A stretch of 64,000 nucleotides of DNA from Escherichia coli (GTDB lineage Bacteria > Pseudomonadota > Gammaproteobacteria > Enterobacterales > Enterobacteriaceae): assembly GCF_001677475.2 (NCBI RefSeq), contig NZ_CP015229.1, one strand, 5' to 3'. The notes under the pieces are model-generated. The model ran no database searches and had not been told where the DNA came from. It worked only from the letters and a program-made list of their open reading frames with translations. The stretch's first letter is position 1. Each line of letters begins with the position of its first letter. Below, one piece after another: positions 7,933 through 26,810 of the stretch. A program made the translations under genes and the position numbers.

Positions 7933-7939
7933 GGACGCT

Positions 7940-8680
7940 ATGCCTGTACCAAATCCTACAATGCCGGTGAAAGGTGCCGGGACCACCCTGTGGGTTTATA
8001 AGGGGAGCGGTGACCCTTATGCGAATCCGCTTTCAGACGTTGACTGGTCGCGTCTGGCAAAAGTTAAAGACCTGACGCCCGGCGAACTGACCGCTGAGTC
8101 CTATGACGACAGCTATCTCGATGATGAAGATGCAGACTGGACTGCGACCGGGCAGGGGCAGAAATCCGCCGGAGATACCAGCTTCACGCTGGCGTGGATG
8201 CCCGGAGAGCAGGGGCAGCAGGCGCTGCTGGCGTGGTTTAATGAAGGTGATACCCGTGCCTATAAAATCCGCTTCCCGAACGGCACGGTCGATGTGTTCC
8301 GTGGCTGGGTGAGCAGTATCGGTAAGGCGGTGACGGCGAAGGAAGTGATCCCCCGTACGGTGAAGGTCACCAATGTGGGCCGTCCGTCAATGGCAGAAGA
8401 TCGCAGTACGGTAACAGCGGCAACCGGTATGACTGTGACGCCTGCCAGCTCCTCGGTGGTGAAAGGGCAGAGCACCACGCTGACCGTGGCATTCCAGCCG
8501 GAGGGCGCAACTGACAAGAGCTTCCGTGCGGTGTCAGCGGATAAAACAAAAGCCACCGTGTCGGTCAGTGGTATGACCATCACCGTGAAAGGCGTTGCTG
8601 CAGGCAAGGTCAACATTCCGGTTGTATCCGGTAATGGTGAACTTGCTGCGGTTGCAGAAATCACTGTCACCGACAGTTAA
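7940..8680 (+). CDS. Major tail tube protein V-like with C-terminal Ig-like domain
   Basis: 246 aa from the internal ATG; lambda V size; C-terminal Big_2-like segment. Confidence 0.9.
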
Positions 8681-8695
8681 TCCGGAGAGTCAGCG

Positions 8696-9118
8696 ATGTT
8701 CCTGAAAACCGAATCATTTGAACATAACGGCGTGACCGTCACGCTTTCTGAACTGTCAGCCCTGCAGCGTATTGAGCATCTCGCCCTGATGAAACGGCAG
8801 GCAGAACAGGCGGAGTCAGACAGCAACCGGCAGGTTACTGTGGAAGACGTCATCAGAACCGGTGCTTGTGTGGTGGCGATGTCCCTGTGGCATAACCATC
8901 CGAAGAAGACGCAGATGCCGTCCATGAATGAAGCCGTTAAACAGATTGAGCAGGAAGTGCTTACCACCTGGCCCACAGAGGCAATTTCTCATGCTGAAAA
9001 CGTGGTGTACCGGCTGTCCGGAATGTATGAGTTTGTGGTGAATGATGCCCCTGACCAGGCAGAGGACGCCGGGCCTGCAGAGCCTGTTTCTGCGGGAAAG
9101 TGTTCGACGGTGAGCTGA
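8696..9118 (+). CDS. Tail assembly chaperone G-like
   Basis: 140 aa; ends just after the slippery heptamer; followed by the -1 frame T ORF. Confidence 0.85.
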   Translation: MFLKTESFEHNGVTVTLSELSALQRIEHLALMKRQAEQAESDSNRQVTVEDVIRTGACVVAMSLWHNHPKKTQMPSMNEAVKQIEQEVLTTWPTEAISHAENVVYRLSGMYEFVVNDAPDQAEDAGPAEPVSAGKCSTVS

Positions 9119-9534
9119 GTTTTGCCCTGAAACTGGCGCGCGAGATGGGGCGACCCGACTGGCGTGCCATGCTTGCCGGGATGTCATCCACGGAGTATGC
9201 CGACTGGCACCGCTTTTACAGTACCCATTATTTTCATGATGTTCTGCTGGATATGCACTTTTCCGGGCTGACGTACACCGTACTCAGCCTGTTTTTCAGC
9301 GATCCGGATATGCATCCGCTGGATTTCAGTCTGCTGAACCGGCGCGAGGCTGACGAAGAGCCTGAAGATGATGTGCTGATGCAGAAAGCGGCAGGGCTTG
9401 CCGGAGGTGTCCGCTTTGGCCCGGACGGGAATGAAGTTATCCCTACTTCCCCGGATGTGGCGGACATGACGGAGGATGACGTAATGCTGATGACAGTATC
9501 AGAAGGGATCGCAGGAGGAGTCCGGTATGGCTGA
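8696..9534 (+). CDS. G-T fusion tail assembly chaperone produced by programmed -1 frameshift
   Basis: ORF 9100..9534 is in the -1 frame relative to G and overlaps its 3' end; slippery G GGA AAG at 9094-9100. Confidence 0.7.
9094..9100 (+). promoter_or_regulatory. Programmed -1 ribosomal frameshift slippery heptamer GGGAAAG (G/G-T)
   Basis: Heptamer sits in the G zero frame as G|GGA|AAG, 18 nt before the G stop; same signal as lambda G/GT. Confidence 0.7.
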
Positions 9535-12088
9535 ACCGGTAGGCGATCTGGTCGTTGATTTGAGTCTGGATGCGGCCAGATTTGACGAGCAGATGGCCAG
9601 AGTCAGGCGTCATTTTTCCGGTACGGAAAGTGATGCGAAAAAAACAGCGGCAGTCGTTGAACAGTCGCTGAGCCGACAGGTGCTGGCTGCACAGAAAGCG
9701 GGGATTTCCGTCGGGCAGTATAAAGCCGCCATGCGTATGCTGCCTGCACAGTTCACCGACGTGGCCACGCAGCTTGCAGGCGGGCAAAGTCCGTGGCTGA
9801 TCCTGCTGCAACAGGGGGGGCAGGTGAAGGACTCCTTCGGCGGGATGATCCCCATGTTCAGGGGGCTTGCCGGTGCGATCACTCTGCCGATGGTCGGGGC
9901 CACCTCGCTGGCGGTGGCGACCGGTGCGCTGGCGTATGCCTGGTATCAGGGCAACTCAACCCTGTCCGATTTCAACAAAACGCTGGTCCTTTCCGGCAAT
10001 CAGGCGGGACTGACGGCAGATCGTATGCTGGTCCTGTCCAGAGCCGGGCAGGCGGCAGGGCTGACGTTTAACCAGACCAGCGAGTCACTCAGCGCACTGG
10101 TTAAGGCGGGGGTAAGCGGTGAGGCTCAGATTGCGTCCATCAGCCAGAGTGTGGCGCGTTTCTCCTCTGCATCCGGCGTGGAGGTGGACAAGGTCGCTGA
10201 AGCCTTCGGGAAGCTGACCACAGACCCGACGTCGGGGCTGACGGCGATGGCACGCCAGTTCCATAACGTGACGGCGGAGCAGATTGCGTATGTTGCTCAG
10301 TTGCAGCGTTCCGGCGATGAAGCCGGGGCATTGCAGGCGGCGAACGAGGCCGCAACGAAAGGGTTTGATGACCAGACCCGCCGCCTGAAAGAGAACATGG
10401 GCACGCTGGAGACCTGGGCAGACAGGACTGCGCGGGCATTCAAATCCATGTGGGATGCGGTGCTGGATATTGGTCGTCCTGATACCGCGCAGGAGATGCT
10501 GATTAAGGCAGAGGCTGCGTTTAAGAAAGCAGACGACATCTGGAATCTGCGCAAGGATGATTATTTTGTTAACGATGAAGCGCGGGCGCGTTACTGGGAT
10601 GATCGTGAAAAGGCCCGTCTTGCGCTTGAAGCCGCCCGAAAGAAGGCTGAGCAGCAGACTCAACAGGACAAAAATGCGCAGCAGCAGAGCGATACCGAAG
10701 CGTCACGGCTGAAATATACCGAAGAGGCGCAGAAGGCTTACGAACGGCTGCAGACGCCGCTGGAGAAATATACCGCCCGTCAGGAAGAACTGAACAAGGC
10801 ACTGAAAGACGGGAAAATCCTGCAGGCGGATTACAACACGCTGATGGCGGCGGCGAAAAAGGATTATGAAGCGACGCTGAAAAAGCCGAAACAGTCCGGC
10901 GTGAAGGTGTCTGCGGGCGATCGTCAGGAAGACAGTGCTCATGCTGCCCTGCTGACGCTTCAGGCAGAACTCCGGACGCTGGAGAAGCATGCCGGAGCGA
11001 ATGAGAAAATCAGCCAGCAGCGCCGGGATTTGTGGAAGGCAGAAAGTCAGTTCGCGGTACTGGAGGAGGCGGCACAACGTCGCCAGCTGTCCGCACAGGA
11101 GAAATCCCTGCTGGCGCATAAAGATGAGACGCTGGAGTACAAACGCCAGCTGGCTGCACTTGGCGACAAGGTTACGTATCAGGAGCGCCTGAACGCGCTG
11201 GCGCAGCAGGCGGATAAATTCGCACAGCAGCAACGGGCAAAACGGGCCGCCATTGATGCGAAAAGCCGGGGGCTGACTGACCGGCAGGCAGAACGGGAAG
11301 CCACGGAACAGCGCCTGAAGGAACAGTATGGCGATAATCCGCTGGCGCTGAATAACGTCATGTCAGAGCAGAAAAAGACCTGGGCGGCTGAAGACCAGCT
11401 TCGCGGGAGCTGGATGGCAGGCCTGAAGTCCGGCTGGAGTGAGTGGGAAGAGAGCGCCACGGACAGTATGTCGCAGGTAAAAAGTGCAGCCACGCAGACC
11501 TTTGATGGTATTGCACAGAATATGGCGGCGATGCTGACCGGCAGTGAGCAGAACTGGCGCAGCTTCACCCGTTCCGTGCTGTCCATGATGACAGAAATTC
11601 TGCTTAAGCAGGCAATGGTGGGGATTGTCGGGAGTATCGGCAGCGCCATTGGCGGGGCTGTTGGTGGCGGCGCATCCGCGTCAGGCGGTACAGCCATTCA
11701 GGCCGCTGCGGCGAAATTCCATTTTGCAACCGGAGGATTTACGGGAACCGGCGGCAAATATGAGCCAGCGGGGATTGTTCACCGTGGTGAGTTTGTCTTC
11801 ACGAAGGAGGCAACCAGCCGGATTGGCGTGGGGAATCTTTACCGGCTGATGCGCGGCTATGCCACCGGCGGTTATGTCGGTACACCGGGCAGCATGGCAG
11901 ACAGCCGGTCGCAGGCGTCCGGGACGTTTGAGCAGAATAACCATGTGGTGATTAACAACGACGGCACGAACGGGCAGATAGGTCCGGCTGCTCTGAAGAC
12001 GGTGTATGACATGGCCCGCAAGGGTGCCCGTGATGAAATTCAGACACAGATGCGTGATGGTGGCCTGTTCTCCGGAGGTGGACGATGA
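9527..12088 (+). CDS. Tail tape measure protein H-like
   Basis: 853 aa, identical in length to lambda H; coiled-coil Ala/Gln-rich middle. Confidence 0.95.
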   Translation: MAEPVGDLVVDLSLDAARFDEQMARVRRHFSGTESDAKKTAAVVEQSLSRQVLAAQKAGISVGQYKAAMRMLPAQFTDVATQLAGGQSPWLILLQQGGQVKDSFGGMIPMFRGLAGAITLPMVGATSLAVATGALAYAWYQGNSTLSDFNKTLVLSGNQAGLTADRMLVLSRAGQAAGLTFNQTSESLSALVKAGVSGEAQIASISQSVARFSSASGVEVDKVAEAFGKLTTDPTSGLTAMARQFHNVTAEQIAYVAQLQRSGDEAGALQAANEAATKGFDDQTRRLKENMGTLETWADRTARAFKSMWDAVLDIGRPDTAQEMLIKAEAAFKKADDIWNLRKDDYFVNDEARARYWDDREKARLALEAARKKAEQQTQQDKNAQQQSDTEASRLKYTEEAQKAYERLQTPLEKYTARQEELNKALKDGKILQADYNTLMAAAKKDYEATLKKPKQSGVKVSAGDRQEDSAHAALLTLQAELRTLEKHAGANEKISQQRRDLWKAESQFAVLEEAAQRRQLSAQEKSLLAHKDETLEYKRQLAALGDKVTYQERLNALAQQADKFAQQQRAKRAAIDAKSRGLTDRQAEREATEQRLKEQYGDNPLALNNVMSEQKKTWAAEDQLRGSWMAGLKSGWSEWEESATDSMSQVKSAATQTFDGIAQNMAAMLTGSEQNWRSFTRSVLSMMTEILLKQAMVGIVGSIGSAIGGAVGGGASASGGTAIQAAAAKFHFATGGFTGTGGKYEPAGIVHRGEFVFTKEATSRIGVGNLYRLMRGYATGGYVGTPGSMADSRSQASGTFEQNNHVVINNDGTNGQIGPAALKTVYDMARKGARDEIQTQMRDGGLFSGGGR

Positions 12089-12414
12089 AGACCTTCCGCT
12101 GGAAAGTGAAACCCGGTATGGATGTGGCTTCGGTCCCTTCTGTAAGAAAGGTGCGCTTTGGTGATGGCTATTCCCAGCGAGCGCCTGCCGGGCTGAATGC
12201 CAACCTGAAAACGTACAGCGTGACGCTTTCTGTCCCCCGTGAGGAGGCCACGGTACTGGAGTCGTTTCTGGAAGAGCACGGGGGCTGGAAATCCTTTCTG
12301 TGGACGCCGCCTTATGAGTGGCGGCAGATAAAGGTGACCTGCGCAAAATGGTCGTCGCGGGTCAGTATGCTGCGTGTTGAGTTCAGCGCAGAGTTTGAAC
12401 AGGTGGTGAACTGA
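12085..12414 (+). CDS. Minor tail protein M-like
   Basis: 109 aa, lambda M size and position. Confidence 0.9.
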   Translation: MKTFRWKVKPGMDVASVPSVRKVRFGDGYSQRAPAGLNANLKTYSVTLSVPREEATVLESFLEEHGGWKSFLWTPPYEWRQIKVTCAKWSSRVSMLRVEFSAEFEQVVN

Positions 12415-13112
12415 TGCAGGATATCCGGCAGGAAACACTGAATGAATGCACCCGTGCGGAGCAGTCGGCCAGCGTGGTGCTCTGGGAAATCGACCTGACA
12501 GAGGTCGGTGGAGAACGTTATTTTTTCTGTAATGAGCAGAACGAAAAAGGTGAGCCGGTCACCTGGCAGGGGCGACAGTATCAGCCGTATCCCATTCAGG
12601 GGAGCGGTTTTGAACTGAATGGCAAAGGCACCAGTACGCGCCCCACGCTGACGGTTTCTAACCTGTACGGTATGGTCACCGGGATGGCGGAAGATCTGCA
12701 GAGTCTGGTCGGCGGAACGGTGGTCCGGCGTAAGGTTTACGCCCGTTTTCTGGATGCGGTGAACTTCGTCAACGGAAACAGTGACGCCGATCCGGAGCAG
12801 GAGGTGATCAGCCGCTGGCGCATCGAGCAGTGCAGCGAACTGAGCGCGGTGAGTGCCTCCTTTGTACTGTCCACGCCGACGGAAACGGATGGCGCTGTTT
12901 TTCCGGGACGTATCATGCTGGCCAACACCTGCACCTGGACCTATCGCGGTGACGAGTGCGGTTATAGCGGTCCGGCTGTCGCGGATGAATATGACCAGCC
13001 AACGTCCGATATCACGAAGGATAAATGCAGCAAATGCCTGAGCGGTTGTAAGTTCCGCAATAACGTCGGCAACTTTGGCGGCTTCCTTTCCATTAACAAA
13101 CTTTCGCAGTAA
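12414..13112 (+). CDS. Minor tail protein L-like
   Basis: 232 aa, lambda L size; conserved Cys cluster near the C-terminus. Confidence 0.9.
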   Translation: MQDIRQETLNECTRAEQSASVVLWEIDLTEVGGERYFFCNEQNEKGEPVTWQGRQYQPYPIQGSGFELNGKGTSTRPTLTVSNLYGMVTGMAEDLQSLVGGTVVRRKVYARFLDAVNFVNGNSDADPEQEVISRWRIEQCSELSAVSASFVLSTPTETDGAVFPGRIMLANTCTWTYRGDECGYSGPAVADEYDQPTSDITKDKCSKCLSGCKFRNNVGNFGGFLSINKLSQ

Positions 13113-13117
13113 ATCCC

Positions 13118-13861
13118 ATGACACAGACAGAATCAGCGATTCTGGCGCACGCCCGGCGATGTGCGCCAGCGGAGTCGTGCGGCTTCGTGGTGAGAACGCC
13201 GGAGGGGGAAAGATATTTTCCCTGCGTGAATATTTCCGGTGAGCCGGAGGCGTATTTCCGTATGTCGCCGGAAGACTGGCTGCAGGCAGAAATGCAGGGT
13301 GAGATTGTGGCGCTGGTCCACAGCCACCCCGGTGGTCTGCCCTGGCTGAGTGAGGCCGACCGGCGGCTGCAGGTGCAGAGTGATTTGCCGTGGTGGCTGG
13401 TCTGCCGGGGGACGATTCATAAGTTCCGCTGTGTGCCGCATCTCACCGGGCGGCGCTTTGAGCACGGTGTGACGGACTGTTACACACTGTTCCGGGATGC
13501 TTATCATCTGGCGGGGATTGAGATGCCGGATTTTCATCGCGAGGATGACTGGTGGCGTAACGGCCAGAATCTCTATCTGGATAATCTGGAGGCGACGGGG
13601 CTGTATCAGGTGCCGTTGTCAGCGGCACAGCCGGGCGATGTGCTGCTGTGCTGTTTTGGTTCATCGGTGCCGAATCACGCCGCAATTTACTGCGGCGACG
13701 GCGAGCTGCTGCACCATATTCCTGAACAACTGAGCAAACGAGAGAGGTACACCGACAAATGGCAGCGACGCACACACTCCCTCTGGCGTCACCGGGCATG
13801 GCGCGCATCTGCCTTTACGGGGATTTACAACGATTTGGTCGCCGCATCGACCTTCGTGTGA
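13118..13861 (+). CDS. Tail assembly protein K-like (JAB/MPN plus NlpC/P60 domains)
   Basis: 247 aa; HSHP JAB motif and Cys/His NlpC/P60-like C-terminal half. Confidence 0.9.
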   Translation: MTQTESAILAHARRCAPAESCGFVVRTPEGERYFPCVNISGEPEAYFRMSPEDWLQAEMQGEIVALVHSHPGGLPWLSEADRRLQVQSDLPWWLVCRGTIHKFRCVPHLTGRRFEHGVTDCYTLFRDAYHLAGIEMPDFHREDDWWRNGQNLYLDNLEATGLYQVPLSAAQPGDVLLCCFGSSVPNHAAIYCGDGELLHHIPEQLSKRERYTDKWQRRTHSLWRHRAWRASAFTGIYNDLVAASTFV

Positions 13862-14430
13862 AAACGGGGGCTGAAGCCATCCGGGCACTGGCCACACAGC
13901 TCCCGGCGTTTCGTCAGAAACTGAGCGACGGCTGGTATCAGGTACGGATTGCCGGGCGGGACGTCAGCACGTCCGGGTTAACGGCGCAGTTACATGAGAC
14001 TCTGCCTGATGGCGCTGTGATTCATATTGTTCCCAGAGTCGCCGGGGCCAAGTCAGGTGGCGTATTCCAGATTGTCCTGGGGGCTGCCGCCATTGCCGGA
14101 TCATTCTTTACCGCCGGAGCCACCCTTGCAGCATGGGGGGCAGCCATTGGGGCCGGTGGTATGACCGGCATCCTGTTTTCTCTCGGTGCCAGTATGGTGC
14201 TCGGTGGTGTGGCGCAGATGCTGGCACCGAAAGCCAGAACTCCCCGTACACAGACAACGGATAACGGTAAGCAGAACACCTATTTCTCCTCACTGGATAA
14301 CATGGTTGCCCAGGGCAATGTTCTGCCTGTTCTGTACGGGGAAATGCGCGTGGGGTCACGCGTGGTTTCTCAGGAGATCAGCACGGCAGACGAAGGGGAC
14401 GGTGGTCAGGTTGTGGTGATTGGTCGCTGA
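13759..14430 (+). CDS. Tail assembly protein I-like
   Basis: 223 aa, lambda I size; Gly/Ala-rich hydrophobic middle; overlaps the K 3' end. Confidence 0.85.
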   Translation: MAATHTLPLASPGMARICLYGDLQRFGRRIDLRVKTGAEAIRALATQLPAFRQKLSDGWYQVRIAGRDVSTSGLTAQLHETLPDGAVIHIVPRVAGAKSGGVFQIVLGAAAIAGSFFTAGATLAAWGAAIGAGGMTGILFSLGASMVLGGVAQMLAPKARTPRTQTTDNGKQNTYFSSLDNMVAQGNVLPVLYGEMRVGSRVVSQEISTADEGDGGQVVVIGR

Positions 14431-14490
14431 TGCAAAATGTTTTATGTGAAACCGCCTGCGGGCGGTTTTGTCATTTATGGAGCGTGAGGA

Positions 14491-15919
14491 ATGGGTAAAG
14501 GAAGCAGTAAGGGGCATACCCCGCGCGAAGCGAAGGACAACCTGAAGTCCACGCAGTTGCTGAGTGTGATCGATGCCATCAGCGAAGGGCCGGTTGAAGG
14601 TCCGGTGGATGGATTAAAAAGCGTGCTGCTGAACAGTACGCCGGTGCTGGACACTGAGGGGAATACCAACATCTCCGGTATCACGGTGGTGTTCCGTGCC
14701 GGTGAGCAGGAGCAGACACCGCCGGAGGGGTTTGAATCCTCCGGCTCCGAGACGGTGCTGGGTACGGAAGTGAAATATGACACGCCGATCACCCGCACCA
14801 TTACGTCTGCAAACATCGACCGTCTGCGCTTTACCTTCGGTGTACAGGCACTGGTGGAAACCACCTCAAAGGGTGACAGGAATCCGTCGGAAGTCCGTCT
14901 GCTGGTTCAGATACAACGTAACGGTGGCTGGGTGACGGAAAAAGACATCACCATTAAGGGCAAAACCACCTCGCAGTATCTGGCCTCGGTGGTGGTGGAT
15001 AACCTGCCGCCGCGCCCGTTTAATATCCGGATGCGCAGGATGACGCCGGACAGCACCACAGACCAGCTGCAGAACAAAACGCTCTGGTCGTCATACACCG
15101 AAATTATCGATGTGAAACAGGGCTACCCGAACACGGCACTGGTCGGCGTGCAGGTGGACTCGGAGCAGTTCGGCAGCCAGCAGGTGAGCCGTAATTATCA
15201 TCTGCGCGGGCGTATTCTGCAGGTGCCGTCGAATTATAACCCGCAGACGCGGCAATACAGCGGTATCTGGGACGGAACGTTTAAACCGGCATACAGCAAC
15301 AACATGGCCTGGTGTCTGTGGGATATGCTGACCCATCCGCGCTACGGCATGGGGAAACGTCTTGGTGCGGCGGATGTGGACAAATGGGCGCTGTATGTCA
15401 TCGGCCAGTACTGCGACCAGTCAGTACCGGACGGCTTTGGCGGCACGGAGCCGCGCATCACCTGTAATGCATACCTGACCACACAGCGCAAGGCGTGGGA
15501 TGTGCTCAGTGATTTCTGCTCGGCGATGCGCTGTATGCCGGTATGGAACGGGCAGACGCTGACGTTCGTGCAGGACCGACCATCAGATAAGGTGTGGACC
15601 TATAACCGCAGTAATGTGGTGATGCCGGATGATGGCGCGCCGTTCCGCTACAGCTTCAGCGCCCTGAAGGACCGCCATAATGCCGTTGAGGTGAACTGGA
15701 TTGACCCGAACAACGGCTGGGAGACGGCGACAGAGCTTGTTGAAGATACGCAGGCCATTGCCCGTTACGGTCGTAATGTCACGAAGATGGATGCCTTTGG
15801 CTGTACCAGCCGGGGGCAGGCACACCGCGCCGGGCTGTGGCTGATTAAAACGGAACTGCTGGAGACGCAGACCGTGGATTTCAGCGTGGGTGCTGAAGGG
15901 CTTCGCCATGTACCGGGTA
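14491..15919 (+). pseudogene. Tip attachment / host specificity protein J, N-terminal fragment, interrupted by an IS
   Basis: ORF 14491..15933 is collinear with lambda J through ...GLRHVPG, then runs into IS sequence and stops. Confidence 0.85.
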
Positions 15920-16010
15920 TGAGACGACAATAACTCAGTCCGCCTGGCGCCGATTATTCTGGCCGGTTTTGTAACCTGAGTGTCATTTACATGATCCAAC
16001 AGGAAATGGC

Positions 16011-17510
16011 GTGACGCTCAATACTTCTCAGGTCAGTTACTATATGACTCAGCGTAAGAAAGGTATAACTCAGCATATCTCGGCCATGAAGGCTGGTATC
16101 TCAGTCCGTTCTGGTCGTCGGATCGAAAAAGGAGAGTGGGCAAAAAACAGTGTTCGGCACTGGCGCACACGCAAAGATCCTCTGGAAGCTGTGTGGGACA
16201 GCATGCTTGTTCCTCTGTTGAAAGAGAGGCCGGCTCTGACACCAACAACTCTACTGGAGATGCTACAGGATAAATATCCCGGCCAGTACCCCAACAGCCT
16301 TCGAAGAACAATGCAACGGCGGGTTCGCGAATGGAAACTACAGTATGGTACAGAGCAGGAGGTCATGTTCCGCCAGCAACATCAGCCCGGCCTGCGAGGC
16401 CTGTCGGACTTTACTGAACTGAAAGGTGTAGTTGTCACCATCGCCGGTAAGTTGTTGGCGCATAAGTTGTATCACTTCCGTCTGGAATGGAGCCACTGGA
16501 GCTGGATGCGGGTTGTTCTGGGTGGTGAGAGCTTCTCTGCTCTGGCTGAAGGCCTGCAGGAAGCCCTCGGACAACTGGGCGGAGTGCCGGTAGAACATAA
16601 AACGGACAGCCTGAGGGCAGCATGGAAACAACAGGGCGAAGATGGACGCCGCGAGCTGACTGAGCGTTATGCTACTCTCTGTCAGCACTACGGAATGCAG
16701 GGCGTACACAATAATGCCGGTCGGGGCCACGAAAATGGCTCGGTTGAAAGTGCCCACGGACATCTGAAAAGGCGTATCTGTCAGGCGCTGATACTGCGGG
16801 GCAGTAACGACTTCAGCACCATAGAAGAATATCAGGCCTTCATCACTCAGCAGGTTATGCGGCACAACCGTAACAATCAGGATCTGGTCAAGGAAGAACG
16901 TCTTCATCTGAAACCGCTGCCGCTTCGTCGCAGTGCTGACTATGATGAGCTGACTGTGAGGGTTAGTCGCAGCAGTACCATCAATGTGAAGCACGTCGTC
17001 TACAGCGTACCTTCCCGGCTTGTAGGTCAACTGTTACGGGTCAGGTTATGGGACGATCGTCTGAGCTGTTACGTTGGCAGCAGCGAGGTCATGAGCTGCC
17101 CTCGCGTCAGACCAGAAAAAGGGAAGACGCGGGCCCGTCGTATCGACTTCCGACATGTGATCGACAGTCTGGCAAAAAAGCCCGGTGCGTTCTGCCATGC
17201 AACGCTGAGAAATGACATCCTGCCGGACGATGAATGGCGGAGGCTGTGGCGTCGCTTATGTAATCATCTGGAGCCCGATATGGCAGGAAGGCTGATGGTA
17301 CATGCCCTGAAACTGGCTGCAGGATACGACGATATCTCAGTCGTGGCAAAAGGTATGGAGCAGATGCTGAATACCCCGGGAAACGTGGATCTGCACCGGC
17401 TGATGCGCTTCCTGGGTATAAAAGAAAAGGCGTTGCCGGTAGTCAATGTGATACAGCATAACCTGAGCAGTTATGAGCAACTACTGCGTGGCAAGGGAGG
17501 TTCGCAGTGA
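16011..17510 (+). CDS. istA: IS21-family transposase IstA
   Basis: 499 aa; N-terminal HTH-like region plus DDE core; overlaps istB by 4 nt. Confidence 0.85.
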   Translation: MTLNTSQVSYYMTQRKKGITQHISAMKAGISVRSGRRIEKGEWAKNSVRHWRTRKDPLEAVWDSMLVPLLKERPALTPTTLLEMLQDKYPGQYPNSLRRTMQRRVREWKLQYGTEQEVMFRQQHQPGLRGLSDFTELKGVVVTIAGKLLAHKLYHFRLEWSHWSWMRVVLGGESFSALAEGLQEALGQLGGVPVEHKTDSLRAAWKQQGEDGRRELTERYATLCQHYGMQGVHNNAGRGHENGSVESAHGHLKRRICQALILRGSNDFSTIEEYQAFITQQVMRHNRNNQDLVKEERLHLKPLPLRRSADYDELTVRVSRSSTINVKHVVYSVPSRLVGQLLRVRLWDDRLSCYVGSSEVMSCPRVRPEKGKTRARRIDFRHVIDSLAKKPGAFCHATLRNDILPDDEWRRLWRRLCNHLEPDMAGRLMVHALKLAAGYDDISVVAKGMEQMLNTPGNVDLHRLMRFLGIKEKALPVVNVIQHNLSSYEQLLRGKGGSQ

Positions 17511-18262
17511 GCAATATCCATCACCTTGAACATAGCCTGCGTAAACTACGCCTGACACGAGTTGGAGCTGAATGGCACGCTCTGGAAAAACGAGCGCTGG
17601 CAGAAGGCTGGACACCATCGCGCTATCTTCTGACGCTATGCAATGAAGAACTCCTGTGGCGCGAGAGTGAAAAACTGCGTCGTTATAAAAAGGAGGCCCG
17701 GTTGCCAGTTGCCAAAACGCTGAGCGAATACGACTTCAGTCAGGTGCCGGAACTGAATGGAGCTCAGTTCCGGCAACTCTGTGAAACGACAGACTGGGTT
17801 GATGCAGGAGAAAACGTTCTGCTGTTCGGAGCCAGCGGGTTGGGGAAAAGCCATCTGGCGGCAGCGATCGTGGATGGCGTAGTAGGTCAGGGCTACCGGG
17901 CCCGGTTCTACAGCGCAGGAGAGCTGTTGCAGGAACTACGTAAAGCCAGAGCTCAGTTGAAACTGAATGAGCTGCTACTGAAACTGGATCGCTACCGGGT
18001 GATAGTGGTGGATGATCTTGGCTATGTCAAACGCGATAGTGCCGAAACGGGTGTGCTGTTCGAGTTAATAGCGCATCGCTATGAACGTGGGAGCCTGGTG
18101 ATAACCAGTAACCATCCGTTCAGCATGTGGGGCAGCATCTTCGTGGATGAGACTATGGCGGTGGCTGCGGCAGACAGGCTGATCCATCACGGATATATGT
18201 TCGAACTGAAAGGGGAAAGCTACAGGAAAAAGACAGCGAAGGCAGTAACAAGCGCGACTTGA
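17507..18262 (+). CDS. istB: IS21-family helper ATPase IstB
   Basis: 251 aa; Walker A GASGLGKSH and Walker B VIVVDDLGY. Confidence 0.9.
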   Translation: MSNIHHLEHSLRKLRLTRVGAEWHALEKRALAEGWTPSRYLLTLCNEELLWRESEKLRRYKKEARLPVAKTLSEYDFSQVPELNGAQFRQLCETTDWVDAGENVLLFGASGLGKSHLAAAIVDGVVGQGYRARFYSAGELLQELRKARAQLKLNELLLKLDRYRVIVVDDLGYVKRDSAETGVLFELIAHRYERGSLVITSNHPFSMWGSIFVDETMAVAAADRLIHHGYMFELKGESYRKKTAKAVTSAT

Positions 18263-18325
18263 TGTCGCCCTGAAGGGTGCGGCCAGTATAGTTGGCGCGA
18301 GTCGGCAAAACTAGTTGACGTCTAA

Positions 18326-20320
18326 TAACCGGGCGATGTCATTGAAATCTGCGATGATGACTATGCCGGTATCAGCACCGGTGGTCGCGTGCTGGCGGTG
18401 AACAGCCAGACCCGGACGCTGACGCTCGACCGTGAAATCACGCTGCCATCCTCCGGTACCACGCTGATAAGCCTGGTTGACGGAAGTGGTAATCCGGTCA
18501 GCGTGGAGGTTCAGTCCGTCACCGACGGACTTAAGGTGAAAGTGAACCGGGTTCCTGACGGCGTTGCAGAATACAGCGTGTGGGGGCTGAAGCTGCCGAC
18601 GCTGCGCCAGCGCCTGTTCCGCTGCGTGAGTATCCGTGAGAACGACGACGGCACGTATGCCATCACTGCCGTGCAGCATGTACCGGAAAAAGAAGCCATC
18701 GTGGATAACGGGGCGCACTTTGACGGCGACCAGAGCGGCACGGTGAATGGTGTCACGCCGCCAGCGGTGCAGCACCTGACCGCCGAAGTCACCGCAGACA
18801 GCGGGGAATATCAGGTGCTGGCGCGCTGGGACACGCCGAAGGTGGTGAAGGGCGTGAGCTTCCTGCTCCGTCTGACCGTAACAGCGGATGACGGCAGTGA
18901 GCGGCTGGTCAGCACGGCCCGGACGACGGAAACCACATACCGCTTCACGCAACTGGCGCTGGGGAACTACAGGCTGACAGTCCGGGCGGTAAATGCGTGG
19001 GGGCAGCAGGGCGATCCGGCGTCGGTATCGTTCCGGATTGCCGCACCGGCAGCACCGTCGAGGATTGAGCTGACGCCGGGCTATTTTCAGATAACCGCCA
19101 CGCCGCATCTTGCCGTTTATGACCCGACGGTACAGTTTGAGTTCTGGTTCTCGGAAAAGCGGATTACCGATATCAGGCAGGTTGAAACCACAGCCCGCTA
19201 TCTTGGTACGGCGCTGTACTGGATAGCCGCCAGTATCAATATCAAACCGGGCCATGATTATTACTTTTATATCCGCAGTGTGAACACCGTTGGCAAATCG
19301 GCATTCGTGGAGGGCGTCGGTCGGGCGAGCGATGATGCGGAAGGTTACCTGGATTTTTTCAAAGGCAAGATAACCGAATCCCATCTCGGTAAAGAGCTGC
19401 TGGAAAAAGTTGATTTGACGGAGGATAACGCCAGCAGACTGGATGAGTTTTCGAAAGAGTGGAAGGACGCTAACGATAAATGGAATGCCATGTGGGGCGT
19501 CAAAATTGAGCAGACCAAAGACGGCAAACATTATGTCGCGGGTATTGGCCTCAGCATGGAGGACACGGAGGAAGGCAAGCTGAGCCAGTTTCTGGTTGCC
19601 GCTAACCGTATCGCGTTTATTGACCCGGCAAACGGGAATGAAACGCCGATGTTTGTGGCGCAGGGCAACCAGATATTCATGAACGACGTGTTCCTGAAGC
19701 GCCTGACAGCCCCCACCATTACCAGCGGTGGCAGTCCTCCGGTATTTTCCCTGACATCAGACGGAAAGCTGACCGCTAAAAATGCGGATATCAGTGGTAG
19801 TGTGAATGCGAACTCAGGAACGCTCAACAATGTCACGATTAACCAGAACTGTACGATTAAGGGCATGCTGGAGGCGACTCAGGTCAGAGGTGACTTCGTT
19901 AAAGCTGTATCCAAATCATTTCCGAAACAGGCTGGTACGTGGGGTAACACGGAAACACCAAACGGGACGGTTACAGTCACCATCAGCGATGATCATAACT
20001 TTGACCGTCAAATCATTATTCCGCCCATTATCTTTAACGGAATAGCGTATAGCGATCCGGGAAGTGGTAATAACCCGGGAGGTACAAGATACACGGGTTA
20101 TGGTTTTGAAGTTCGCAAAAACGGTGTATTAATCGCATCCAGAGAAACTAAAGGGGCCATTCCCGGTAGCTACAGTGCGGTTATTGATATGCCGAGTGGC
20201 AGGGGAAGCGTCACTCTGGAGTTTAAGGTTTTCCATAAAGGCAATCAGTGGGCAGGTAATATCACCGACTGTACGGTGATTGTGACCAAAAAAGCCGCTT
20301 CCGGCATCAGTATTCGTTGA
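18326..20320 (+). pseudogene. Tip attachment / host specificity protein J, C-terminal fragment
   Basis: Frame continues the lambda J sequence ([13 protein letters not shown]...) directly after the IS; ORF 18389..20320 covers most of it. Confidence 0.85.
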
Positions 20321-20341
20321 AATTGTTATAACCCATATAAG

Positions 20342-20365
20342 GGCACCAGAAATGGTGCCTTTTTT
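20342..20365 (+). terminator. Rho-independent terminator after J
   Basis: ggcacca-gaaa-tggtgcc hairpin followed by tttttt. Confidence 0.6.
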
Positions 20366-20389
20366 ATTGCAGAAAAGCGAGAGGTAATT

Positions 20390-20989
20390 ATGCGTAAACT
20401 TTATGCCGCCATTTTGTCCGCAGCCATTTGTCTGGCCGTATCCGGTGCGCTTGCATGGGCATCTGAACATCAGTCCACGCTGAGCGCGGGGTATCTTCAT
20501 GCCCGGACCAACGTTCCCGGCAGTGATGATCTGAACGGGATTAACGTGAAATACCGTTATGAGTTTACGGATACGCTGGGGCTGGTGACGTCATTCAGCT
20601 ATGCAGGAGACAAGAATCGCCAGCTGACCCGTTACAGCGATACCCGCTGGCATGAAGATTCCGTGCGTAACCGCTGGTTCAGCGTGATGGCGGGGCCGTC
20701 TGTGCGCGTGAATGAATGGTTCAGCGCGTATGCGATGGCGGGTATGGCTTACAGCCGTGTTTCGACTTTTTCCGGGGATTACCTTCGCGTAACTGACAAC
20801 AAGGGGAAAACGCACGATGTGCTGACCGGAAGTGATGACGGTCGCCACAGCAACACGTCTCTGGCGTGGGGGGCTGGCGTGCAGTTTAACCCGACCGAAT
20901 CCGTGGCCATTGATATTGCTTATGAAGGTTCTGGCAGTGGTGACTGGCGCACTGACGGTTTCATCGTGGGTGTCGGTTATAAATTCTGA
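20390..20989 (+). CDS. lom: Lom-like outer membrane protein (Ail/Lom family)
   Basis: 199 aa, signal peptide, beta-barrel pattern ending in a C-terminal aromatic residue; lambda position right after J. Confidence 0.9.
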   Translation: MRKLYAAILSAAICLAVSGALAWASEHQSTLSAGYLHARTNVPGSDDLNGINVKYRYEFTDTLGLVTSFSYAGDKNRQLTRYSDTRWHEDSVRNRWFSVMAGPSVRVNEWFSAYAMAGMAYSRVSTFSGDYLRVTDNKGKTHDVLTGSDDGRHSNTSLAWGAGVQFNPTESVAIDIAYEGSGSGDWRTDGFIVGVGYKF

Positions 20990-21053
20990 TTAGCCAGGTA
21001 ACACAGTGTTATGACAGCCCGCCGGTTCAGGTGGGCTTTTTTGTGGGGGGAAT

Positions 21054-23993
21054 ATGGCAGTAAAGATTTCAGGTGTACTGAAAGACGGCACAGGAAAACC
21101 GGTACAGAACTGCACAATCCAGCTGAAAGCAAAACGTAACAGCACCACGGTGGTGGTGAACACGCTGGCCTCAGAAAATCCGGATGAAGCCGGGCGTTAT
21201 AGCATGGACGTTGAGTACGGTCAGTACAGCGTTATTCTGTTGGTGGAAGGATGCCCGCCGTCACATGCCGGGACCATCACCGTGTATGAAGATTCCCGAC
21301 CCGGTACGCTGAATGATTTTCTCGGTGCCATGACGGAGGATGATGCCCGTCCGGAGGCTCTGCGCCGTTTTGAACTGATGGTGGAAGAGGTGGCGCGTAA
21401 CGCGTCCGCGGTGGCACAGAACACGGCAGCCGCGAAGAAGTCAGCCGGCGATGCCGGCACATCTGCCCGTGAGGCGGCAACCCATGCGACTGATGCTGCA
21501 GATTCAGCACGTGCAGCCAGCACGTCAGCCGGACAGGCCGCGACGTCAGCTCAGGAGGCTTTTTCCTGCGCAGGAACGGCATCAGCAAAAGCCTCTGAGG
21601 CATCAAAAAGTGCTGCCGCTGCAGAGTCCTCAAAAAGCGCGGCGGCCACCAGTGCCGGTGCCGCGAAAACGTCTGAAACGAATGCTGCAGCGTCACAACA
21701 ATCAGCAGCCACTTCTGCATCCACCGCGACCACGAAAGCGTCAGAAGCTGCCACCTCAGCCCGGGATGCGTCGGCTTCAAAAGAGGCGGCAAAATCATCA
21801 GAAACGAGCGCAGCCTCGAGCGCAAGTAGTTCCGCTTCCTCGGCAACAGCGGCAGCAAATTCTGCGAAGGCGGCAAAAACGTCCGAGACGAACGCCAGGT
21901 CTTCTGAAACGGCAGCGGAACAGAGCGCCTCAGCTGCGGCAGGTTCAGAAACTACCGCTGCATCATCAGCCCGTGAGGCGTCAGTCAAAGCGGAGGAGGC
22001 TGCAGCCAGTGCCACTGCCGCCGGAAAATCGGCAGAAAGCGCCGCATCATCCGCTTCAACAGCCACAACGAAGGCTGGCGAAGCCACTGAACAGGCCAGC
22101 GCAGCAGCGAGGTCAGCTTCCGCAGCGAAGACATCCGAAACGAACGCGAAAGCGTCGGAAACCAGCGCAGAATCCTCAAAAACGGCTGCCGCATCGTCCG
22201 CCAGTTCGGCGGCGTCATCGGCCTCATCGGCGTCTGCTTCAAAAGATGAGGCGACCAGACAAGCGTCAGCAGCGAAGGGCAGCGCCACGACGGCATCCAC
22301 GAAGGCAACAGAGGCTGCTGGCAGTGCGACGGCGGCAGCACAGAGCAAAAGTACGGCGGAATCCGCGGCAACGCGCGCCGAGACAGCGGCAAAACGGGCA
22401 GAGGATATTGCATCCGCCGTGGCGCTTGAGGATGCGAGCACGACGAAAAAGGGGATAGTACAGCTCAGCAGTGCGACCAACAGCACTTCCGAGTCACAGG
22501 CGGCAACGCCAAAGGCAGTAAAAGCAGCCAATGACAATGCTGAGAAACGTCTGCAGAAAGATCAGAACGGTGCGGATATCCCTGGCAAAGACACCTTTAC
22601 GAAAAATATTGGTGCCTGCCGTGCCTTCGGTGGGTCAGTAAGCACAACAACAGGAAACTGGACGACTGCACAGTTTATCGAGTGGCTGGATTCTCAGGGA
22701 GCATTTAACCATCCATACTGGATGTGCAAGGGTTCCTGGTCTTATGGCAATAATAAAATCATTACTGATACTGGCTGCGGTAATATTCATCTCGCCGGAG
22801 CTGTCATTGAAGTAATGGGGATAAAGTCAGCGATGACGATCCGCATTACCACTCCGACTACATCCAGCGGTGGCGGAACAACCAACGCCCAGTTTACCTA
22901 TATTAATCACGGAACAGATTATTCACCTGGCTGGCGAAGGGACTATAACTCCAGAAATAAGCCAACGGCATCAGAGATCGGGGCGCTACCGTCAGGTGGA
23001 ACAGCAGTATCATCAGTTAATCTGGCTTCAAAAGGTCGGGTAGCCGCGCTGACAGACAATACGCAGGGGGCAGCAGGTCTTGAGTTATACGAGGTGTATA
23101 ACAACGGATATCCAACAGCGTATGGAAATATCATTCACCTGAAAGGGATGACAGCCGTTGGCGAAGGTGAGTTACTCATCGGCTGGAGTGGTACAAGCGG
23201 TGCTCATGCTCCGGCATTTATTCGTTCACGACGGGATACGACCGACGCAAACTGGTCGCCGTGGGCGCAGCTTTACACCTCGGCTCATCCTCCTGCAGAG
23301 TTTTATCCAGTCGGTGCACCAATCCCGTGGCCATCAGATACCGTTCCGTCTGGCTATGCCCTGATGCAGGGGCAGACTTTTGACAAATCTGCATACCCGA
23401 AACTTGCAGCGGCTTATCCGTCAGGCGTTATTCCTGATATGCGTGGCTGGACGATTAAGGGCAAGCCCGCCAGTGGTCGTGCCGTATTGTCTCAGGAACA
23501 GGACGGCATTAAATCGCACACCCACAGCGCCAGCGCATCCAGTACGGATTTGGGGACGAAAACCACATCGTCGTTTGATTACGGCACTAAATCCACGAAT
23601 AACACCGGTGCGCATACCCATAGTTTAAGTGGCAGCACGAATGCGGCTGGTAATCACAGCCATAGAGATGGCCGTCGATTTAACCCCAGTGTTTTTAAAG
23701 ATACTTATCAATATGGTTATACAAGCTCAGGTCAAAATACCTGGGGGGTACAAGGCTCAGTAGGTATGTCTACGGGGTGGTTAGCTAATACCAGTACAGA
23801 TGGTAATCATAGCCACTCACTGTCCGGTACAGCAGTATCTGCAGGTGCACACGCGCATACTGTCGGTATTGGTGCTCATACGCACTCCGTTGCGATAGGG
23901 TCACATGGACACACCATCACCGTTAACGCTGCTGGTAACGCGGAAAACACCGTCAAAAACATCGCATTTAACTATATTGTGAGGCTTGCATGA
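21054..23993 (+). CDS. stf: Side tail fibre protein Stf-like
   Basis: 979 aa; N-terminus matches the lambda Stf N-terminal domain; long Ala/Ser/Thr-rich repeat shaft; C-terminal His-x-His repeats. Confidence 0.9.
21380..22450. repeat. Low-complexity Ala/Ser/Thr/Glu-rich repeat region inside stf
   Basis: Roughly 350 codons of degenerate SAA/TSE/AAK repeats; GC-rich and free of stops in several frames. Confidence 0.6.
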
Positions 23994-24892
23994 TTACGCT
24001 CATTCTTTCTGCACCAGTAACAGAAATGGCTGAAGCATTTAAGCGGGTATTCGCAAATGCAGATAATGTGAATATTGTCGGAAAGCCATTTGAAACAATC
24101 AGGGAATTTGACTGCATGGTAAGTGCGGCAAACAGTTTCGGCCTGATGGATGGCGGTGTTGATGCCGCCATTACCGCATTCTTCGGTACTCAGTTACAGT
24201 CCCGCGTTCAGAATCATATTCTTCGTGAATATCTCGGCGAGCAGCCTGTAGGTTCTGCATTTGTTATTGAAACGGGGCATAATCATCATCCCTGGCTGGT
24301 ACATGCGCCAACAATGCGTGTTCCGCTGACAATTGACGGAACAGACGCTGTATATAACGCAACCTGGGCCGCTCTGCTTGCCATCTTTCAGCACAATAAA
24401 CACGCAACGACAGACAGGAAAATAAAAACGGTGGTATTCCCTGCAATGGGAGCCGGATGTGGTCAGGTGCCGTTTGAAAGTGTTGCCCGGCAGATGAAGC
24501 AGGCATGGGATAACTTTAATAAAAAAACAGAATCAATTAACTGGGAATACGCACAATCCCGCCAGTCGGCAGTATTTGGCACATATGCATACTGTCCGGG
24601 TAATTCTGTTTGCCGTTATGCGGATACTAAATATATTGGATGCGGCGATTATCGGACGTATTGCTCACGTTCCGGGCAGGTCTGTATTAACCCTGAACAT
24701 CAGGCTGATGATGTACTGATACAACATCAGGCTAATAACCGGTTTCGCCCTGGTTCGCATATACACCGGATTAATCCAGAAAATCCCGTAGGTAATGTCA
24801 TCTCTGGCGCACATAGCCACGGAAGTAGCATCGTTATTGGTGCTCACACCCATACGCTCAATAAACAATATTCTGTCTCTGATATTAAGTAG
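23990..24892 (+). CDS. Protein with macrodomain-like N-terminus (putative ADP-ribose binding/hydrolase) and Cys/His-rich fibre-tip-like C-terminus
   Basis: 300 aa; start overlaps the stf stop (ATGA); motifs [18 protein letters not shown] and [12 protein letters not shown] resemble the two macrodomain signature blocks; C-terminal GSHIH, GAHSHG, GAHTHT repeats. Confidence 0.6.
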
Positions 24893-24900
24893 AGGTGAAC

Positions 24901-25476
24901 ATGGATTTCAGAATGAGTGAACAACCACGGACCATAACAATTTATAATCTGCTGGCCGGAACTAATGAATTTATTGGTGAAGGTGATGCATATATTCCGC
25001 CTCATACAGGTCTGCCAGCAAACAGTACCGATATTGCACCGCCAGATATTCCGGCTGGCTTTGTGGCTGTTTTCAACAGTGATGAGGCATCGTGGCATCT
25101 CGTTGAAGACCATCGGGGTAAAACCGTCTATGACGTGGCTTCCGGCGACGCGTTATTTATTTCTGAACTTGGCCCATTACCGGAAAATGTCACTTGGTTA
25201 TCCCCGGAAGGGGAGTTTCAGAAGTGGAACGGCACAGCCTGGGTGAAGGATACGGAAGCAGAAAAACTGTTCCGGATCCGGGAGGCGGAAGAAACAAAAA
25301 ACAACCTGATGCAGGTAGCCAGTGAGCATATTGCGCCGCTTCAGGATGCTGCAGATCTGGAAATTGCAACGGAGGAAGAAATCTCGTTGCTGGAAGCATG
25401 GAAAAAGTATCGGGTATTGCTGAACCGTGTTGATACGTCAACTGCACAGGATATTGAATGGCCAGCACTGCCGTAG
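24901..25476 (+). CDS. tfa: Tail fibre assembly protein Tfa-like
   Basis: Collinear with lambda Tfa ([75 protein letters not shown]...). Confidence 0.9.
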
Positions 25477-25573
25477 GGTAAAACATATAAATTCTATAAT
25501 TAGATGTATCTTTCCATTTACGGCAAGGAAGGGGGCTTGGAAGACGTAAAGCATCTCACACCGAGATTATTTT

Positions 25574-26164
25574 TTATATGTCAGGTGTCTGAAGTTTTGC
25601 TTTGGCTCTTAAAATGGTTTGCCGCGAGGTTTTGAATTCCCGGGCAATGGCACTTATACTTACACCTGACTTAATTCGTTCGAATACCACCTGTTTCTGT
25701 TCTTCATTTAACACAGGTGGTCGACCAAAACGTTTCCCTGCGCCCCGGGCTCTTACTATCCCGGAATGAGTGCGTTCAAGTAAAAGGTCTCGTTCAAATT
25801 CAGCGACTGCTGAAATTACTTGCATCATCATTTTTCCTGTTGGACTGGTCAGGTCAATGCCCCCCAATGCTAAGCAATGCACTCTGATACCTGTTTCGGT
25901 CAGTTGTTCCACTGTTTTCCTGATATCCATTGCATTACAACCAAGGCGATCCAGTTTTGTCACAATCAATTGATCACCACATTTCAGGCGAGCAAGCAAC
26001 CGGTTAAAACCAGGACGCTCACTGGTTGCTGCTGAGCCGCTAATGTGTTCTTCGATTATTTGCTGAGGTTTGATTTTAAAACCTGCACTTTCGATTTCCC
26101 GGCGTTGATTTTCGGGGGTCTGATCCAGCGTTGATATCCGACAGTAAGCAAAAATTCGAGACAT
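25574..26164 (-). CDS. Small serine recombinase (resolvase/invertase family)
   Basis: 196 aa; N-terminal catalytic block YCRISTLDQ (Ser nucleophile), [11 protein letters not shown]-terminal HTH. Confidence 0.85.
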
Positions 26165-26543
26165 AGTGAGACTCTATACGAAATTGGTGTACATATCATA
26201 ATGCATATCCAAAAATTATTTCGCTTATTATTGTACATATTTGTATGTATACGTTCGAAAATAAACGAATTCGGATGCAGTCCCGTAATTTTGGTGTAAC
26301 CAAAAATCGATTTTTTGAAAAATGGCTTTAACTCGGTTTGTTTTTCGAACTCCGGGCGGACTCGAGGAAGACGAATAATAGTGTTGTATGTTATTTTAAC
26401 CAGATTTTAAGTTGTTTGGTCGTGGAAAAGTGGAGCAAAATGTTGTTAAAGTGGAAAAATGGTAAAAAAAGTAGGTTGTTGCGGAATAACGTAGTTGTTG
26501 ATATTTTTTTAATGCATTGAAAAATTATTTTTCAGGGGGGGTA

Positions 26544-26810
26544 TTACACTTTACCATTTAAATTTTGGTTGTCTTTAAGAACTGATATCGCTGTTTGTAA
26601 TAATTCTTTGTTATCCAGCCATGACTTTTTCTTTATGTTTCCTTCAATGTAATCAAGCAATGTTCTGGTATTGATAGGTCTTCCCTGTTTTGCTACTTCC
26701 ACGACAGCATCTCCCAGGATAATTCTGACTTCAGGAAGCTGCGCAGGGAACCACTTTAGGGTGTCTTTTGATTTCATGAAGATATTCCTTAAAATATTAT
26801 TGGTTTTCAT
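26544..26810 (-). CDS. Hypothetical protein in AT-rich prophage accessory region
   Basis: 88 aa ORF, the only ORF of 60 aa or more in a ~1.2 kb AT-rich stretch; no family recognised. Confidence 0.4.
   Translation of the reverse strand: MKTNNILRNIFMKSKDTLKWFPAQLPEVRIILGDAVVEVAKQGRPINTRTLLDYIEGNIKKKSWLDNKELLQTAISVLKDNQNLNGKV

Follow-up and report, generated by a model that had tools for sequence, protein, structure and literature searches.

A lambda/434-type prophage tail-tip gene J of Escherichia coli broken by one intact copy of the IS21-family element ISEc10

The prototype of the IS21 family is IS21 of plasmid R68.45. Many members of the family have ends that read TG...CA, as against TAT...ATA in ISEc10. 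In phage lambda, amber mutants of the tail-tip gene J lose full-length gpJ and are blocked at the first step of tail assembly; the heads in their lysates are filled, and can still be joined to tails provided from elsewhere. The related phage 434 uses OmpC as its receptor. The structure of lambda gpJ has been determined by cryo-EM, in which strand β24 of domain HDIV comprises residues 477–482, and is followed by a β-sandwich, a linker, FNIII-1/2, a helix bundle, the central fibre and the receptor-binding domain (PMC10721106).

We have analysed a 64-kb stretch of E. coli DNA, termed the window here. Positions 14491–20320 comprise a single lambda/434-type J gene that is broken by one intact copy of ISEc10, an element of the IS21 family. 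The J 5′ fragment (14491–15917, plus strand) carries codons 1–476. These 476 codons are read within 14491–15918, and the open reading frame then adds four IS-encoded codons (MRRQ) before a stop at 15931–15933. It matches the Pfam families FNIII-A_GpJ and Phage-tail_3, and 470 of its 476 residues are identical to lambda gpJ. The 3′ fragment (18334–20320, plus strand) comprises codons 477–1137 and the stop codon, with matches to Ig_J, Ig_J_second, Phage_Tail_Tip and Ig_GpJ_C. A first-pass annotation had stated that the J frame resumes right after the element, in pieces of about 476 and about 665 codons. The frame is indeed open from 18329, directly after the IS. The smaller figure is exact, while the larger is close to the 663 codons found, 661 of them unique to J and two (Pro-Gly) re-encoded by the target duplication. 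Because the 2416 inserted bases are not a multiple of three, the 3′ part lies in a different frame from the 5′ part. Its first in-frame start is a GTG at 18389, with no obvious ribosome-binding site. A search for promoters and terminators in or around the IS, bearing on expression of the 3′ fragment and on polarity, gave nothing above shuffled expectation.

Both fragments match the NCBIfam model lambda_TipJ with E = 0, at model positions 1–476 (5′) and 475–1163 (3′), and score 1109.7 and 1163.2 bits respectively, each under the cut-off of 1950. When the IS and one copy of the duplication are removed, the repaired J is 3414 nt long, encodes 1137 amino acids with no internal stop, and scores 2284.9 bits over model positions 1–1163. 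Six Pfam domains occur in the order of gpJ across the two fragments, i.e. FNIII-A, the Phage-tail_3 hub, Ig_J, Ig_J_second, the tail-tip fibre and the C-terminal receptor-binding domain, and the hub match is broken at profile position 143 of 164 in the 5′ fragment. Intact J genes align collinearly with the repaired J, which bears out the earlier claim of one gene in two pieces. It differs by two residues from the intact J of the prophage in strain M114, and is 98.5–99.4% identical over its full length to J of the isolated phages 434, 2B8, IdasGreatGrand and PhiR26_1. No decay mutations were found in the two halves. The sole unusual residue, G211 (C in M114), is a standing allele, as the 121-nt stretch that includes it recurs at 100% identity in many annotated intact J genes.

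The element occupies 15918–18327 in the orientation of J (plus strand). It is complete at 2410 bp, with 99.9% identity to annotated ISEc10 copies over positions 1–2410, and many full-length copies align with it end to end over exactly these positions. Its left (15918–15965, plus strand) and right (18280–18327, minus strand) terminal inverted repeats are imperfect and multipartite. The ends, TATGAGACGACAA... and ...TTGACGTCTAATA, were found by a repeat search and match at 34 of 48 positions, with the conserved blocks TAT-AGACG-CAA and GCGCC...CTGGCCG. Two genes lie between them on the J strand, istA (16011–17510, GTG start), encoding a transposase of 499 amino acids, and istB (17507–18262), encoding a helper AAA+ ATPase of 251 amino acids, whose start overlaps the istA stop by 4 nt. 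IstA scores 226.4 bits against the IS21-family transposase model NF033546 (cut-off 160), over model positions 2–293 of 294; in Pfam its sole match is to Mu-transpos_C_2. IstB scores 266.7 bits against NF038214 (cut-off 200) and matches PF01695 with E = 9e-62, with a Walker A motif GASGLGKS at residue 108 and a Walker B motif VIVVDD at residue 165. The IstA and IstB of strain RM9088 are identical at 496/499 and 250/251 residues respectively. The description of a 2.4-kb istA-istB element with visible imperfect inverted repeats was thus accurate, and the IS21-family assignment can be refined to ISEc10. That name rests on PGAP labels. The DNA is 98–99.9% identical to more than 500 copies labelled 'IS21-like element ISEc10 family', and annotated copies were found in 525 of 5,426 E. 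coli genomes. Among the best matches, one copy has entered a gpZ-like tail gene of isolate AHB1 and another overlaps a major capsid gene. A preference of ISEc10 for prophage structural genes is not supported, as an even sample of 60 ranked records lay mostly in non-phage contexts.

The limits of the IS and the length of the target duplication were fixed from the empty site in M114 together with other ISEc10 copies. The M114 site reads GTACCGGGCGAT, in which ACCGGG is present as a single copy, and it overlaps both flanks here by six bases. The insertion is therefore bounded by a 6-bp direct duplication, ACCGGG, at 15912–15917 and 18328–18333; direct duplications in the IS21 family are 4–8 bp long. 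Other ISEc10 copies have the same termini, TATGAGACG...CGTCTAATA, flanked by duplications of 6–7 bp, with GCCTGG and GGTCACC at two of them. It appears that a single ISEc10 copy with its two-gene istA/istB transposition module transposed into J of a prophage. This prophage is lambda-like, with 434 host range, and is integrated between yjjG and prfC in an E. coli chromosome.

J is split between codons 476 and 477 (G476/D477). The alignment of the repaired J with lambda gpJ has no indel through residue 1011, and we infer that the break falls inside the hub domain HDIV, just before strand β24. A break at this point within HDIV would sever some of the hub, along with the FNIII domains that close the tail cone, the central fibre and the domain that binds the receptor. 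The 5′ fragment now encodes gpJ residues 1–476 plus the four residues contributed by the IS, and the 3′ fragment (residues 477–1137) is deprived of its promoter-proximal translation start. On the understanding that gpJ forms a trimeric hub plus central fibre, and that the lambda tail is initiated on it, tail-building by this prophage is very probably blocked by the insertion. Alone, the prophage would be expected to make DNA-filled heads and no functional tails, hence no plaque-forming particles. That no infectious particles should arise from the prophage alone is a sound expectation from lambda genetics and the gpJ structure (PMC10721106). Only three routes back to infectivity would exist: the IS could be lost by a rare precise excision between the 6-bp repeats, the gene could recombine with another J, or another lambdoid prophage could supply J in trans.

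The last two routes raise the possibility that the lesion is real and the prophage nevertheless functional, another lambdoid prophage providing gpJ or whole tails in trans, or repairing J by homologous recombination, such that infectious or transducing particles are released. J-homologous DNA is present in 4,522 of 5,426 E. coli genomes, and those that have it carry it at a median of 3 places. Defective prophages of strain Sakai are inducible, packaged and transferable, recombination between prophages yields new phages, and interactions between prophages can mobilise defective lambdoid ones (PMC2669165); co-resident lambdoid prophages may in this way mask the J defect (PMC2669165). A second genome is also relevant. 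Both junctions of the insertion are present in an independent draft assembly, GCA_002516285.1, which was found solely through exact-protein look-ups of the two truncated products, and whose contigs break ~60 nt into each IS end. Its left-junction contig is only 4 kb in length and starts at position 11936 of the window. It has 23 base differences from the window, clustered in M and L as a 0.9-kb patch of alternative alleles. The pattern may point to a second related prophage, with which sequence was exchanged or onto which the assembly collapsed, and such a patch is as expected if that genome contains a second similar tail module. Against this, no second J that might serve as an alternative intact copy, and no second ISEc10, was found in the 64-kb window, and a complementing gpJ would have to fit the I, L, M and H proteins of this phage. 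We regard a functional prophage as possible, if unlikely.

A further explanation is that lesions outside the window, in early, replication, lysis or packaging genes, had made the prophage cryptic by the time the IS arrived, with the J insertion one more lesion and not the cause. The window begins inside terL, and in the closest relative, the prophage of M114, there are many accessory genes of cold-shock and Qin-like type and one lysis-region pseudogene. Yet what is visible is in good order. The upstream late operon (1–14430, plus strand) comprises the 3′ part of terL, W, portal, C, D, E, FI, FII, Z, U, V, G/T, H, M, L, K and I, with the G-T slippery site GGGAAAG at 9094. Downstream of J (20390–25476, plus strand) are lom, stf, a macro-domain gene and tfa, with protein sequences equal to those of M114, so that the tail module has the lambda-type order H-M-L-K-I-J-lom-stf-tfa. 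No inverted repeats of at least 18 nt, as for an invertible tail-fibre segment beside the Pin-like invertase, were found in 23000–27400. Compared gene by gene with the M114 prophage, which is 99.5–99.7% identical, occupies the same prfC site and has an intact J, the 22 genes from terL (its 3′ 478 codons) to tfa have equal lengths and no frameshift or stop. The earlier statement that every other late gene is intact is upheld within the window, Nu1, the 5′ end of terL, the lysis genes and the early region lying outside it. Moreover, the M114 prophage possesses an integrase, an XRE-type repressor, a Q-like antiterminator, a holin, a lysozyme and both terminase subunits, and long-dead prophages normally bear several structural-gene lesions. 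A prophage that was already cryptic is rather unlikely.

Could the two J pieces be separate working proteins, so that the tail still functions? Both are long open frames, and in phage T5 the hub (pb3), central fibre (pb4) and receptor-binding protein (pb5) are on distinct chains (PMC10721106). However, the break lies within HDIV, between residue 476 and β24, and not at a domain boundary. No start in the 3′ fragment precedes the GTG at 18389; no Shine-Dalgarno sequence can be recognised for it, and its use would entail the loss of 20 residues. Every close relative, phage or genome, has a single J of 1137 amino acids, and what separates the two pieces is a mobile element whose target duplication is fresh. 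A T5-like division of labour is thus very improbable. There is also scant reason to believe that the truncated product is kept as a dominant-negative saboteur, entering tail initiator complexes and poisoning the tails of related phages. The product gpJ(1–476) keeps those hub domains, at the N-terminus, through which gpI, gpL and gpM are contacted, and could be made once the late operon is activated, whether through induction or through Q protein from a superinfecting or co-resident lambdoid phage. The idea is conceivable only in that the 5′ fragment still has its own translation signals and the operon upstream of it is intact. We consider it a very long shot. Misassembly is a classic problem at IS elements, and the strain probably has several copies of ISEc10, as draft contigs break in it, yet the perfect 6-bp direct duplication is a transposition signature and GCA_002516285.1 independently has both junctions, 60 nt into the IS, so that the chance of an assembly error is practically negligible.

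The insertion had also been described as recent. In agreement with this, the duplication is perfect, the IS reading frames are intact and the J halves show no decay. The left junction, which was the sole junction searched by DNA, is absent from 5,426 complete E. coli genomes, and likewise from 100,044 GTDB species representatives and the JGI metagenomes. The description needs the qualifier that the event is not unique to this record, as it occurs in GCA_002516285.1 also. Since the 22 other late genes in view carry no lesion and none of the searched sets contains the left junction, we infer that the insertion is evolutionarily young and confined to one lineage. Taking all the observations together, transposition of ISEc10 into J, leaving a tail-defective prophage by a young event in one lineage, is the best joint explanation, and one that we hold with considerable confidence.

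The lesion in J is an ordinary kind of prophage damage, of a type already known. Conceptually it is not new, the inactivation of genes in lambdoid prophages by IS elements being well documented. It is a clean and datable example of the first step in prophage decay, with one IS and the rest intact. Annotators should treat the IS and both fragments now called 'phage tail protein' as one J pseudogene disrupted by ISEc10, and the prophage classed as probably tail-defective, though its structural module otherwise looks complete. The disruption bears on the predicted inducibility of the prophage and on phage-mediated gene transfer from the strain.

Compared with known systems, the element shares with the IS21 prototype the overlapping istA (DDE transposase) and istB (AAA+ helper) genes, long multipartite imperfect repeats and short duplications. 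IS21 is nevertheless a different element; the match is through family-level models only, and ISEc10 is longer. With the PGAP-annotated ISEc10 copies of E. coli chromosomes and plasmids the correspondence extends to the length of 2410 bp, the sizes of IstA and IstB, the termini and the duplications. The copy here differs only in its insertion site, the best match (on an OkiPb01695 plasmid) being a few bases off. The repaired J, of 1137 amino acids, is 98.5% identical to that of phage 434, but the gene here breaks off after codon 476. Collinearity with lambda J extends through residue 1011, whereas the last 157 residues are just 39% identical to lambda, and the host range is therefore of the 434 type and not LamB-specific. 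IS629 is the element typical of O157, and the one found here is ISEc10. The IS-inactivated prophages of O157 Sakai are likewise lambdoid, are defective by lesions in morphogenetic or other genes, and reside among several related prophages (Asadulghani et al. 2009, PMC2669165). Many of them are multiply defective (PMC2669165), whereas here a single lesion can be seen in an otherwise pristine late operon. Comparable in effect are the lambda J ambers. Those are point nonsense mutations that can be suppressed, whereas the 2.4-kb insertion in the present J is non-suppressible and would revert solely by rare precise excision.

The tail module read in the window is of lambda type. The ORF listing of 12-23 kb contains, all on the + strand, the tape measure gene H (9527-12088) followed by M, L, K and I, an ORF of 480 aa (14491-15933) with the Pfam FNIII-A_GpJ domain and the hub domain Phage-tail_3, an ORF of 643 aa (18389-20320), lom (20390-20989), and beyond lom a side tail fibre gene of 979 aa. 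The 480- and 643-aa ORFs are the 5′ and 3′ pieces respectively of the tail-tip gene J. The Pfam domains Ig_J, Ig_J_second, Phage_Tail_Tip and Ig_GpJ_C all belong to the reading frame open from 18329, and the two pieces align with positions 1-476 and 475-1163 of the NCBIfam model lambda_TipJ, whose cut-off is reached by neither alone. The first-pass annotation placed their lengths at about 476 and 665 codons; the former stands, but the latter is corrected to 661. Further downstream, a long repetitive segment of stf rich in Ala, Ser and Thr (21300-22540) accounts for a number of long but spurious ORFs, read in the other frames or from the opposite strand (e.g. 21451-22458 + and 21551-22537 −).

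Between the two pieces of J there is an ORF of 499 aa (16011-17510, + strand) matching the IS21-family transposase IstA (NF033546, 226 bits, cut-off 160), overlapped by one of 251 aa (17507-18262, + strand) matching the helper ATPase IstB (NF038214, 267 bits, cut-off 200; PF01695) with its Walker A and B motifs intact. The longest inverted repeat of the region pairs 15913-15965 with 18280-18332. On megablast analysis of 5,426 complete E. coli genomes, full-length matches to the element were found in 525, with the annotation 'IS21-like element ISEc10 family'. The element is 2410 bp (15918-18327), a span matched exactly by many of the genome copies, and the same termini TATGAGACG...CGTCTAATA occur in two independent ISEc10 copies, with direct duplications GCCTGG and GGTCACC. 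In the window the IS is flanked on both sides by ACCGGG (15912-15917 and 18328-18333), present singly in the closest intact relative in the context GTACCGGGCGAT. This fixes the target duplication at 6 bp, and the earlier proposal that an IS21-family element divides J is borne out and refined to ISEc10 as annotated in those genomes. ISEc10 has transposed into J and split it. IstA and IstB are identical to annotated intact copies at 496/499 and 250/251 residues, so that this copy of the element looks functional.

Other ISEc10 copies are also found in phage genes. That in E. coli AHB1 (NZ_OZ547150.1; locus positions 6006-8411) lies inside a gpZ-like tail gene with a GCCTGG duplication and a frameshifted istA, and interrupts a lambdoid structural gene; in NZ_AP045169.1 the annotation has another copy overlapping a major capsid gene. 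Across 60 records sampled at spaced points, ISEc10 showed no general preference for phage genes.

Removal of the element and one copy of the duplication in silico, joining 14491-15917 to 18334-20320, generates a gene of 3414 nt, with 1137 codons and no internal stops. This repaired J scores 2284.9 against the lambda_TipJ cut-off of 1950. The prophage lies between yjjG and prfC, and E. coli M114 has one at this site as well; the M114 prophage is 99.7% identical to the window over 1-15917 and 99.5% over 18328-32333, and has an uninterrupted gpJ of 1137 aa from which the repaired protein differs at two residues. One of these, G211, lies within a 121-nt stretch that is identical in many annotated intact J genes, and therefore represents an ordinary allele, not decay. 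Comparison with phage genomes gives a full-length identity of 98.5-99.4% between the repaired J and that of the isolated phages IdasGreatGrand, 2B8, PhiR26_1 and 434. These comparisons indicate that the two pieces were originally one gene. Seven of the nine nucleotide differences between J of the window and that of M114 fall within 70 bp (18577-18646), and this clustering suggests a small recombination patch rather than drift by point mutation.

The repaired J aligns with lambda gpJ with no indel through residue 1011, so lambda residue numbering applies directly. The insertion point is exactly between G476 and D477, within HDIV. In lambda gpJ this domain includes strand β24 (477-482), an inserted β-sandwich (483-569) and β25 (570-578); it is followed by a linker and then FNIII-1 and FNIII-2, closing the cone, beyond which are a bundle of three helices, the central fibre and the domain that binds the receptor (PMC10721106). 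The product of the 5′ piece terminates ...HVPG-MRRQ. The first start in the 3′ frame is a GTG at 18389, at which no ribosome-binding site is evident. Up to the break, 470/476 residues are identical to lambda gpJ, as against 61/157 in the C-terminal receptor-binding region; from the latter, a phage with J repaired would be expected to have a host range of 434 type, not LamB type. The receptor-binding end (19870-20320, codons about 981-1137) is thus 39% identical to lambda, and J as a whole about 98% identical to that of phage 434.

Lambda gpJ nucleates tail assembly. Without the full-length protein no tail initiator would form, and induction would therefore be predicted, from established lambda biology and the gpJ structure, to end in lysis with filled heads released and infectious virions lacking; the first-pass reading of a likely defective tail stands. 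ISEc10 has the orientation of the late operon, so Q-antiterminated transcription should continue across it to lom, stf and tfa; the + strand has no convincing terminator. We speculate that expression of the genes downstream may persist, and that istAB may be over-transcribed upon induction. Rescue might occur by precise excision, by recombination with another J or by complementation in trans. The latter two are realistic in E. coli, given that J-like DNA is present at a median of three places per genome and that defective prophages of O157 Sakai are mobilised via prophage–prophage interactions (PMC2669165).

The left IS/J junction is absent from the 5,426 complete E. coli genomes, where no record covers at least 80% of a probe spanning it, and was not found in GTDB species representatives or JGI metagenome contigs. 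Exact protein look-up found both truncated J proteins in one NCBI draft assembly, GCA_002516285.1. There a 4,042-bp contig (NJSK01000066.1) has the 5′ fragment at its end and reaches 60 nt into the IS, and one of 276 kb has the 3′ fragment at its end and begins 61 nt inside the other end of the IS. Over 18267-30320 of the window the right contig matches at 100% identity. The left is identical to 13123-15977, and its 23 mismatches are confined to 12202-13122, in genes M and L; this patch would reflect either gene conversion or the collapse of short reads onto a second, similar lambdoid prophage. Since its contigs match the window and carry the IS junctions, the assembly represents this strain or one very closely related to it, and the contig breaks within the IS imply multiple ISEc10 copies there. 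The insertion had been judged recent; the perfect duplication, the undamaged flanks and the distribution of the junction, absent from the complete genomes yet common to GCA_002516285.1, uphold this and point to a young insertion confined to one lineage. The chromosomal flank from prfC to nadR (27000-47000) has best full-length matches of 96.9-97.8% among the 5,426 genomes, so the host lineage is poorly represented there. Over the first 5 kb the match to M114, a mountain pygmy possum strain, is 99.5%.

Each window segment matching an annotated M114 late gene was translated. Upstream of J these are terL (478 visible codons), W, portal, C, D, E, FI, FII, Z, U, V, G, T, H, M, L, K and I, and downstream lom, stf, a macro-domain gene and tfa. 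None is shortened or contains a stop, each differs by zero to five amino acids, and the G-T slippery heptamer is present. The first-pass view that the other late genes are intact thus holds for the visible ones; the window begins part-way into terL, and outside it lie Nu1, the genes for lysis and the early region. The M114 counterpart of that region encodes an integrase, an XRE-type repressor, a Q-like antiterminator, holin, lysozyme and both terminase subunits. The macro-domain gene (23990-24892, + strand; 300 aa; PF01661, E = 8e-19) lies between stf and tfa, overlapping the stf stop. For a tail-fibre locus such a gene is unusual; it is shared with the M114 prophage and could have an ADP-ribose-processing accessory or counter-defence role. 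Just downstream of tfa is a gene for a Pin/Hin-like serine invertase (25574-26164, − strand; Resolvase and HTH_7). No inverted repeats of at least 18 nt were found in 23000-27400 and no invertible tail-fibre segment is evident, so the invertase may be a remnant.

By sequence, the element corresponds to ISEc10, an already known member of the IS21 family, with the family-defining features found in every case where they could be tested, and the interrupted gene corresponds to the known 434-type J. The knocking out of a prophage morphogenetic gene by an IS is itself a well-known phenomenon.
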